A stretch of DNA of 64,000 bases, taken from NCBI GenBank assembly GCA_964623375.1, contig CAZUTS010000001.1, forward strand, positions 7,692 through 71,691, written 5' to 3'. Under the pieces are notes generated by a model that worked only from the letters and a program-made list of their open reading frames with translations, was not told the origin of the DNA and ran no database searches. This document shows, piece by piece, positions 50,831 through 51,025 of the stretch; position 1 is the stretch's first letter; each line of letters begins with the position of its first letter. This DNA is from an uncultured Anaerolineaceae bacterium (GTDB lineage: Bacteria > Chloroflexota > Anaerolineae > Anaerolineales > UBA11579). Both the position numbers and the translations under genes were made by a program.

Positions 50831-51025
50831 CTAGCGGGAGGAGGGGCTGGTGCCGATGCCGCCGCCGATGGGGTGGTTAGCCTGAGGGCCAGTGCCAATC
50901 CCGCCACCGATGGGGTGGTTCATCTGGGGGCCAGTGCCAATACCACCGCCGATGGGGTGGTTCATCTCAGGGCCAGTGCCAATGCCGCCACCGATAGGAT
51001 GAGAGAAAGCGAAAGAGTTGGTCAT
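50831..51025 (-). CDS. 64-aa tandem-repeat peptide: MTNSFAFS + 4 x 14 aa (HPIGGGIGTGPxMN)
   Basis: AAAGGAG SD 8 nt before the ATG at 51025 (the track ORF starts further up at 51061). Four in-frame 42-nt units differ mainly at synonymous sites. Confidence 0.6.
   Translation of the reverse strand: MTNSFAFSHPIGGGIGTGPEMNHPIGGGIGTGPQMNHPIGGGIGTGPQANHPIGGGIGTSPSSR
50834..51001 (-). repeat. 4 x 42-nt in-frame tandem repeat (coding)
   Basis: Units: catcctatcggtggcggcattggcactggccctgagatgaac / caccccatcggcggtggtattggcactggcccccagatgaac / caccccatcggtggcgggattggcactggccctcaggctaac / caccccatcggcggcggcatcggcaccagcccctcctcccgc. Confidence 0.9.

Follow-up and report, generated by a model that had tools for sequence, protein, structure and literature searches.

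What is encoded by an open reading frame (ORF) of 64 codons that consists almost entirely of one peptide unit repeated four times, and is it a gene at all? We address this question for a micro-ORF on the minus strand (50831 to 51025) of a 64,000-nucleotide stretch, hereafter the window, of contig CAZUTS010000001.1 from an uncultured Anaerolineaceae bacterium, where it lies between a large regulator gene and a small gene that we call the companion. Comparison with related loci indicates that the micro-ORF is a genuine protein-coding gene and that purifying selection acts on its peptide, and it supports the view that the repeat is a functional peptide unit and not the result of recent slippage. 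As to its function, we favor, tentatively and with a probability that we put somewhat under one half, a reading in which the micro-ORF supplies the peptide signal or ligand for a receptor-plus-adjacent-propeptide cassette, whose module would have been amplified and whose export signal would have been lost in this lineage.

Evidence for a selected coding gene

The micro-ORF and its parts have the following positions in the window:

50831..51025, minus strand: micro-ORF, 64 amino acids (aa), with the ATG at 51025-51023 and the stop codon TAG at 50833-50831
51034..51040, minus strand: Shine-Dalgarno site AAAGGAG, read from the sequence, with 8 nt from the end of GGAG to the ATG
51025-51002, minus strand: N-terminal lead MTNSFAFS, part of the micro-ORF
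51001-50960, 50959-50918, 50917-50876 and 50875-50834, minus strand: units 1 to 4, of 14 residues each

The translation reads MTNSFAFS followed by HPIGGGIGTGPEMN, HPIGGGIGTGPQMN, HPIGGGIGTGPQAN and HPIGGGIGTSPSSR, so that both the minus-strand start at 51025 with its Shine-Dalgarno site and 8-nt spacer and the 64-aa product of a lead plus four contiguous units, as described in the first-pass annotation of this DNA, are borne out. A longer N-terminus starting from an in-frame ATG at 51061 was rejected, as that ATG falls inside the -10 box of the predicted promoter. At the DNA level, Tandem Repeats Finder reports a 42-nt period over 50850-50995 (3.5 copies, 85% matches), which is the top-scoring tandem repeat of the window, and a degenerate two-unit DNA pattern has three matches at the locus and none in 100 shuffles of the window. 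Between the nine-codon cores of the four units, the six pairwise comparisons give 24 synonymous and 0 non-synonymous differences, in line with the earlier remark that the units vary mostly at third codon positions.

The micro-ORF peptide itself yields no match in protein searches, and for this reason the orthologues were reached through the companion gene and through DNA patterns, using contigs with companion homologues, metagenome contigs scanned with the companion profile, and species genomes scanned with the DNA pattern. The resulting data set comprises about 50 related Anaerolineales loci, with 36 distinct DNA variants and 35 peptides of the micro-ORF, so orthologues with a conserved unit, which had been proposed as a check, do exist in relatives. 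The order regulator, micro-ORF, PF14407 protein, and signaling output, which we call the cassette, is found in the window and in loci L001-L013, L037, L090, L099, and L134-L167. The two-unit pattern scan of the species genomes returned at least 120 stretches, and the taxonomic range of the family is thus a lower bound; among the matches listed, the family members are L037, L051, L090, and L099, all from Anaerolineales/Anaerolineaceae, and nearly all others are chance matches in Gly-rich or noncoding frames of GC-rich genomes. As a separate observation, L046 and L107 (contig ends of the Desulfobacteraceae metagenome-assembled genome Bse_4) contain a 42-nt tandem repeat that translates as (PGGGGIGTHGRPVT)n with no companion gene nearby; this repeat is probably unrelated and simply matched the search pattern.

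All 36 variants have an ATG with a GGAG(G) site 5 to 10 nt upstream, and the proposed frame is free of stop codons in all 36, the corresponding numbers for the other five frames being 2, 7, 26, 4, and 6. The ratio of non-synonymous to synonymous substitution rates (dN/dS) between same-length orthologues is 0.03-0.21, at dS of 0.3-1.0. Between the unit cores within one gene, the family-wide proportions of synonymous (pS) and non-synonymous (pN) differences are 0.48 and 0.015, respectively, so the units do not drift freely at non-synonymous sites, and the claim of selection on the peptide rather than slippage stands. Some three-unit genes show a low pS between their units (0-0.26), from which it follows that unit duplication still occurs. 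Gene callers predict the 64-aa gene at this locus in six independent assemblies and a gene of 56-64 aa in many assemblies.

A protein homology search with the micro-ORF in a 15-billion-protein collection gave no match, and an exact look-up of seven variants (the window peptide and six others) in the same collection found none of them. The peptide has no match in Pfam, NCBIfam, or PADLOC, Rfam gave none over the region at its gathering threshold or at E of <=1, and a full-text search of the literature for the motif returned only a coincidental dehydrin motif; within these resources the unit is as unfamiliar as the first-pass annotation had found it. A three-unit pattern run over viral contigs retrieved only generic poly-(GGGIG) low-complexity ORFs.

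Anatomy and variation of the unit

The core of the unit is a nine-residue motif, x-P-x-G-G-G-(I/V/T)-G-x. P2, G4, G5, and G8 are present in 125 of 125 units and G6 in 123; position 1 is Q, H, Y, G, F, or S (His in 30 of the 125), position 3 is M, I, V, L, T, or C, and position 9 is T, G, S, H, or C. The linker between cores has five residues in 85 of 90 cases, and the residue that precedes a unit is N (40 times), C (16), E (10), D (8), A (6), R (5), S (4), or H (1). The last unit usually stops at the core or two residues beyond it, being followed by nothing in 13 cases, by DH in 8, and by NH in 3. The absence of Cys and the Asn directly before His-Pro, both pointed out in the first-pass annotation, hold for the window copy and not for the family, in which Cys occurs in linkers and core, the preceding residue is varied, and His occupies position 1 only in the minority of units given above. 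Metal binding through this His, one of the functions suggested earlier, was discarded because most relatives have Q, Y, F, G, or S at position 1. Asn-directed (legumain-like) excision was likewise rejected, as the residue before the unit is not conserved.

The 35 peptides carry four units in 22 cases, three in 7, five in 2, two in 2, and one in 2; the number changes by whole units, always in frame, and the N-terminal lead has only 7 to 11 residues. Unit order differs even between close strains (EMN, QMN, QAN in the window versus QAN, EMN, QMN in L005). At the variable core positions (1, 3, 7, and 9), identity is 97.8% within a gene and 36.4% between genes, and 0 of 2,000 permutations reach the observed value. 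Different units also occur beside identical companions, for example, in L136 and L137 or in L010 and L151. Taken together, the comparisons show that the units of a gene keep one and the same peptide sequence and diverge jointly from lineage to lineage, with the DNA almost fully scrambled at silent sites, a mode of evolution that we would describe as pherotype-like.

Single-unit relatives and the likely origin of the repeat

The first-pass annotation saw no hydrophobic segment or signal peptide in the window peptide, which agrees with a maximum 15-residue Kyte-Doolittle (KD) hydropathy of 0.49 and no hydrophobic region. A different type of small ORF is found in L141, L164, and L167, whose companions are 58-63% identical to the window companion: it has a basic N-region, a hydrophobic core with a KD of 2.4-3.2 (against 0.49 in the window), and an AxA or small-x-small site that is immediately followed by a single unit, with which the protein ends. 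With a slash at the site and the stop codon following the last residue, these ORFs read ...LALPGVAFA/QPMGGDIGS in L141, ...LVLPEAAYA/FPTSGGVGG in L164, and MFKSNDFQMFLMTNPEATLRALRLALLIAMMAAALLAPTVAFA/QPVGGDVGT in L167, where the segment before the site ends in ...APTVAFA. L167 also shares the queA/ruvB/GAF-HD-GYP synteny. Some linkers of multi-unit peptides keep the small-x-small pattern (LSFA/QP, SYA/QP, and TYS/QP), and some multi-unit genes have vestigial leads, such as MNNNNSGLSFA/QP.

More distant modules were found in L168-L171, for which the DNA was examined, and in the P0081 locus, for which the called genes only were used. The PF14407 genes of L168-L171 are 30-44% identical to the companion, and over these four loci and P0081 the cassette order recurs at a companion identity of 30-36%. 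In all five, a small ORF separates the PF14407 gene from a MalT-like/TPR/BTAD regulator upstream, and the output is either receiver-only proteins (one or two) or an HD-domain gene. The distant small ORFs combine a hydrophobic N-terminus with a Gly-rich extreme C-terminus, ending in ...LLLQPTGPISGGGGV, ...VPLGMPGGGGGGGVG, ...LLLPMGPVGGGGGGV, and ...MALAGGAPDAIGGM, each followed by the stop codon. In L171 (5389-5958), the small Gly-tailed ORF is separated from the PF14407 gene by the gene for a 189-aa DUF5317 membrane protein; an ORF of 112 aa, for which no Pfam hit is recorded, comes next.

In a neighbor-joining tree of the companions, which has low resolution, the signal-peptide forms are basal. 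The comparison establishes homology between the repeated unit and the peptide at the C-terminus of the relatives with a signal peptide, and it makes the cassette older than the repeat. By parsimony, the four-unit leaderless peptide of the window would then derive from a signal-peptide propeptide with one C-terminal unit.

The adjacent regulator and the predicted promoter

The micro-ORF starts 146 nt past the stop codon of the regulator gene on the same strand, an arrangement common to all related loci. The features upstream of the micro-ORF are as follows:

51172..54390, minus strand: regulator gene, 1072 aa, with an N-terminal MalT-like STAND ATPase, TPR repeats, and a C-terminal SARP module (winged helix plus BTAD)
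51104..51131, minus strand: terminator-like hairpin and T-run, AGCTACC-loop-GGTGGCT-TTTTTT, read from the sequence, which closes the regulator gene
51060..51092, minus strand: predicted activator-type promoter, with TCATAG direct repeats at 51092-51087 and 51080-51075 (12-bp spacing)
51068-51063, minus strand: weaker third promoter repeat, TTATAG
51065-51060, minus strand: -10-like box TAGAAT, with no -35 box

The start of the regulator was placed at MTILLTKVR because its orthologues are called at 1072-1076 aa. In the long ORF, Pfam identifies a BTAD domain at residues 1044-1183 (E of 5e-21), several TPR families, and AAA_16, and NCBIfam identifies MalT (E of 2.5e-74) and, over residues 941-1180, the SARP part of AfsR (AfsR residues 23-261, E of 1.5e-13). 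The nearest solved structure is MalT (PDB 8bob, E of 3e-30). An anti-phage STAND system was ruled out, as there was no PADLOC match. The orthologues have a GC-rich hairpin and T-run at the corresponding place; in the window, the 9-nt loop kept the consensus scanner from detecting the hairpin.

A scan of the promoter region for sigma-70 consensus promoters found none. The succession gcTCATAGctgcgtTCATAGg, 8 to 9 nt, and TAGAAT, TAAGAT, or TATGAT is kept in essentially every locus in which the micro-ORF comes first, and the direct-repeat element is also present in the distant modules L168-L170, the promoter of L171 having GAGTAC three times at 11-bp spacing and then TATAAT. SARP sites are direct repeats spaced by 11 or 22 bp, with the 3' repeat 8 bp away from the -10 box; one example is the afsS promoter, which is bound by AfsR (PMC10936776). 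The promoter of the micro-ORF thus appears to have the layout of a SARP-activated promoter, and, given SARP-type direct repeats and no -35 box, the adjacent STAND-TPR-SARP regulator is most likely what switches the operon on.

The companion gene and the rest of the operon

Downstream of the micro-ORF, we identified the following features:

50574..50789, minus strand: companion gene, 71 aa, starting 41 nt past the micro-ORF with its own Shine-Dalgarno site; predicted five-helix protein, putatively of the PF14407 (Frankia_peptide)/Os1348 NHLP clan
50486..50573, minus strand: 88-nt spacer between the companion and the phosphodiesterase gene, with the hairpin GGCACC-GGCTGCACG-TTG-CGTGCAGCC...GTGCC and no U-tract
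46970..50485, minus strand: PAS-(GAF)x5-HD-GYP protein, 1171 aa, predicted cyclic di-GMP (c-di-GMP) phosphodiesterase, last gene of the operon

The companion scores below the cut-off against both PF14407 (15.6 bits, cut-off 48, E of 0.02) and NF038399, the Os1348 family NHLP clan (19.9 bits, cut-off 40, E of 5.7e-4), and matches PDB 6lk7, which is Os1348, with an E of 0.1. Its AlphaFold2 (AF2) model is a five-helix bundle with a predicted local distance difference test (pLDDT) score of 81, and a Foldseek search of the PDB with this model gave nothing significant. Its 43 close homologues all come from Anaerolineales metagenome-assembled genomes. A profile search over 1.84 billion representatives retrieved 121 clusters of small proteins with a common N-terminal domain of about 65 residues and variable tails, and a second search, with the companion-family profile, matched numerous proteins among whose annotations are precomputed PF14407 hits and the name "Os1348 family NHLP clan" (E of 1e-20 to 1e-22). 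We treat the companion as a putative divergent subfamily of the PF14407/Os1348 NHLP clan. In Pseudomonas, Os1348 is a putative precursor of a ribosomally synthesized and post-translationally modified peptide (RiPP) beside genes for GNAT, HEXXH, and SagB-like enzymes (PMC7726476), and PF14407 has been linked by ECOD to NHase-alpha, Nif11, and ComX leader-like domains (PMC12353581). We found no GNAT, HEXXH, or SagB-like enzyme with the companion in the Anaerolineae loci inspected.

Each cassette has one to three companion copies. In L037, L139, L142-L144, L147, and L160, the companion is tandemly duplicated two or three times with the micro-ORF sandwiched between the copies; the two companions of L037 (7321-8000) are identical in protein, and this locus ends before a possible further upstream module. 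Two relatives appear to be fusions of a PF14407-like domain, one to a response-regulator receiver domain (P0099, 205 aa) and the other to a Peptidase_M78/IrrE-like domain (P0136, 324 aa), either of which may be a gene-call artefact. They hint that a "RiPP precursor" family also serves as a signaling domain.

The 41-nt spacer between the micro-ORF and the companion is unstructured (-4.3 kcal/mol, z of +0.7), and we found no terminator or antiterminator between the two genes. We predict an operon with the micro-ORF as its first cistron, followed by the PF14407 protein and the GAF-HD-GYP phosphodiesterase. The latter, for which Pfam reports GAF_2 (E of 2e-79, five stretches), HD_5 (E of 2.4e-38), and a weak PAS, holds the same position in all loci of the same synteny. 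The hairpin at 50486-50573 (-31.1 kcal/mol, z of -1.3) has no match in Rfam. A strong hairpin is present downstream of the last companion in every orthologue (e.g., L007, L008, L010, L012, L037, L090, L148, L163, and L165): in most clades it is GTGAGGG-loop-CCCTCAC, flanked by CCTTAGG/CTTAAGG and with a variable loop and no U-tract, and the window clade has instead a GC hairpin of a different, nested form. Such a hairpin may act as an attenuator, a processing site, or a protein-binding site.

Surrounding DNA

The cassette is flanked by housekeeping genes (deoA-like, queA, ruvB, upp, pgk, and tpi). Other signaling genes of the window are a GAF-PAS histidine kinase (29062-30615), an FHA-Trans_reg_C regulator beside a Ser/Thr kinase (32081-33853), and a PAS-GGDEF diguanylate cyclase (42659-44059), the last lying 3 kb beyond the HD-GYP gene. 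Two further repeats were noted: the tandem repeat at 6972-7036, which translates into an Asn-Gly dipeptide repeat within a 253-aa ORF with no Pfam match just downstream of dnaK (6698-7459, plus strand), and a perfect 7-nt tandem repeat, GCTAACA, with 8.6 copies at 55877-55936, between the pyrimidine-nucleoside phosphorylase and degV-like genes.

Possible functions of the peptide

The reading of the product as a peptide signal draws on the combination of a selected small gene, a promoter of SARP layout beside a SARP-bearing regulator, and a unit homologous to the C-terminal peptide of signal-peptide relatives. In the ancestral form, a single 9-mer would have been placed at the extreme C-terminus of a Sec-signal propeptide, right after an AxA signal-peptidase-like site; in the window lineage, the signal sequence would have been lost and the mature module multiplied to two to five copies, which may act after proteolytic release or as a multivalent ligand. 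Their most plausible target would be the TPR sensor of the neighboring STAND regulator, closing a feedback loop from peptide to regulator with c-di-GMP degradation as the output. The binding of the regulator to the repeats, any processing or export of the peptide, and the identity of the receptor are inferences in this scheme. With a TPR regulator next door, a SARP-box-like promoter, and single-unit relatives with signal peptides, the "repeat-built signaling peptide" option of the first-pass annotation fits the context best.

Several observations weigh against this reading. The window peptide, like all multi-unit forms, has no signal or hydrophobic segment, and we found no exporter, protease, or oligopeptide permease (opp) in the window or the related loci, so secretion of the multi-unit form is unsupported. 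The regulator does not have the RRNPPA fold typical of the peptide-receptor systems compared below (Rap, Rgg, NprR, PlcR, PrgX, or AimR type), as Pfam, NCBIfam, and the closest structure point to a MalT-like STAND-TPR-SARP protein, and the repeats of the window-clade promoter are spaced by 12 bp, where 11 bp is canonical. With GGG-x-G invariant in the core, few positions remain that could encode specificity, and an AF2 model of the micro-ORF peptide alone is uninformative (pLDDT of 49.8). In L157 (5724-6000), moreover, the micro-ORF has decayed, with ACG as its start and the repeats gone, and the regulator, TCATAG promoter, Shine-Dalgarno site, companion, and GAF-HD-GYP gene are all kept: the cassette can persist without the micro-ORF.

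The lack of an export signal in the window peptide would be expected if it were an uncleaved cytoplasmic adaptor, with an output similar to that of AfsS, in which three to five identical short linear motifs of the 64-aa protein bind several copies of a partner. Candidate partners are the PF14407 protein and, in the product of the downstream gene, the five GAF domains or the receiver domains; the adaptor would scaffold or modulate c-di-GMP signaling; the regulator would only switch the micro-ORF on, and the peptide would not be its ligand. We consider this on the unlikely side. The predicted tight cotranscription with the companion or companions and the phosphodiesterase (unstructured 41-nt spacer, no terminator) speaks for it, as does the last unit stopping right after the core, which is expected if the core is the binding motif. 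The fusion of a PF14407 domain to a receiver in P0099 ties the family to signaling proteins, and there is a precedent in AfsR (SARP-NOD-TPR), which activates the adjacent afsS (PMC10936776). On the other hand, the single unit of the ancestral-type relatives lies outside a signal or transmembrane segment, which is a poor fit for a cytoplasmic partner, the companion remains constant while the residues of the unit change, which makes it an unlikely reader of the variable positions, and there is no sequence similarity to known adaptors.

The assignment of the companion to the PF14407/Os1348 NHLP clan, with members elsewhere that are putative RiPP precursors (PMC7726476), raises the question of whether the micro-ORF is a multi-core RiPP precursor, with the companion acting as leader in trans and the modifying enzymes encoded elsewhere in the genome. 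The near-identical repeated cores, and the wider companion family with its variable C-terminal tails that resemble RiPP cores, would suit this explanation. We give it a small probability, as no protease, macrocyclase, radical SAM, YcaO, or ATP-grasp enzyme or transporter is present in the window (Pfam, 30 ORFs) or beside more than 15 related loci with called genes, and the flanks are housekeeping genes. Furthermore, conservation in the peptide falls on the Gly core and variation only on the five-residue linker, the terminal unit is truncated without a C-terminal flank in most genes, and the companion has no double-glycine leader cleavage motif. The resemblance to cyanobactin, orbitide, or fungal multi-core precursors proposed in the first-pass annotation is thus not supported. 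Very improbable, in our view, is a non-functional frame, either open by chance across a DNA or RNA repeat or serving as a Gly-codon-rich leader peptide that attenuates the downstream genes. The antisense -1 frame is indeed open in 26 of the 36 variants, as expected for GGN-rich DNA, and the Gly codons would suit a leader; against this, only the sense frame is open in all variants, each with its ATG and Shine-Dalgarno site, and pN is much lower than pS. A DNA or RNA element should also behave in the opposite way to what is seen, which is an amino acid motif kept while the DNA is scrambled, and a noncoding RNA has no support from Rfam. For a leader, the terminator or antiterminator before the next gene is missing and the downstream genes are not related to glycine, and the single-unit relatives with signal peptides look like ordinary small-protein genes. 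To something outside all of these readings we assign a fairly small probability.

Implications

No library (Pfam, NCBIfam, PADLOC, or Rfam), structure search, or full-text search recognizes the peptide or the cassette. The cassette fails defining features of the RRNPPA, AfsS-type, and RiPP families; plausibly, it works like the first two, with an appreciable chance of being a distinct signaling system of the Chloroflexota. Anaerolineales are abundant filamentous bacteria of wastewater sludge, sediments, and soils, and, to our knowledge, almost nothing is known about how their behavior is regulated. The four-part cassette (STAND-SARP regulator, tandem Gly-rich peptide, NHLP-clan protein, and c-di-GMP phosphodiesterase or receiver) would represent a new signaling module, and, if the peptide reading is true, receptor-plus-propeptide signaling would extend beyond the Bacillota and to a different receptor class. 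In its boldest form, which we rate as unlikely when taken as a whole, this would be the first receptor-propeptide system recognized in the Chloroflexota, with a MalT/STAND-SARP receptor and a c-di-GMP output, in which a secreted single 9-mer turned, in one lineage of the Anaerolineales, into a leaderless, codon-scrambled tandem 3- to 5-mer, that is, a social signal became a cell-autonomous multivalent ligand that drives STAND oligomerization, with units that coevolve in pherotype fashion. The micro-ORF is also a clean natural case of a protein repeat kept by selection with the DNA repeat erased. As its peptides are absent from the 15-billion-protein collection, protein-level searches of such collections are blind to this family.

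Comparison with known systems

The most general likeness is to the precursors of yeast alpha-factor and animal neuropeptides, in which a peptide of about 13 residues is repeated head to tail several times and the tandem hormone copies raise the signal yield per translation event. These depend on the eukaryotic secretory pathway and on dibasic processing sites, none of which is seen here, and the likeness is conceptual only. Multi-core RiPPs (cyanobactin PatE-type, orbitide/cyclotide, and fungal) and NHLP/Nif11-leader RiPPs also repeat near-identical short cassettes in one precursor, and the latter share a neighboring gene of the NHLP leader-like clan. They differ in having cluster enzymes, a protease, or a transporter, of which we found none in the window or the loci, and a leader, which the repeat peptide lacks; their recognition sequences are conserved and their cores hypervariable, the reverse of the situation here, where in addition the last unit is truncated.

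The AfsR-AfsS pair of Streptomyces shares with our locus a large regulator with SARP, STAND ATPase, and TPR parts and an adjacent target gene of about 60 codons whose product is made of short internal repeats; AfsS has 63 aa and three such repeats. In the target promoter of both, direct repeats about 8 bp from the -10 box take the place of a good -35 box (PMC10936776). The domain order is different, with ATPase, TPR, and C-terminal SARP here and SARP, NOD, and TPR in AfsR, the repeat spacing is 12 bp here against 11 bp, and nothing in the afs locus corresponds to the companion or the HD-GYP gene. As judged by eye, the repeat motif of AfsS, TxxDNHMPxxPA, appears unrelated to xPxGGGxGx, and AfsS is not known to have signal-peptide-bearing relatives.

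The closest working analogue would be the RRNPP(A) systems of the Bacillota (Rap-Phr, PlcR-PapR, NprR-NprX, and AimR-AimP), whose propeptides adjoin the TPR receptor and have a C-terminal mature 5- to 10-mer in one to four tandem pheromone copies (PMC11343458). In both, a small ORF adjoins a co-oriented gene for a cytoplasmic TPR regulator, and our single-unit relatives have a Sec-type signal followed by a nine-residue peptide at the extreme C-terminus. The peptide module is in tandem in both, with one to five copies here against one to four (PMC11343458). The differences are that the receptor candidate is a MalT-type STAND ATPase of about 1070 aa with a SARP module and not an RRNPPA fold, that a signal peptide is missing from the window peptide and from every multi-unit form, that the core is an invariant Gly-rich motif, and that the cassette, found in Chloroflexota, includes a PF14407 protein and a c-di-GMP or receiver output. 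In the known system, the peptide is exported, processed, and re-imported by Opp to be bound by the receptor, a route that is hypothetical for the cassette described here. As in RRNPP(A), the peptide diverges fast and in a lineage-specific manner beside conserved neighbors.

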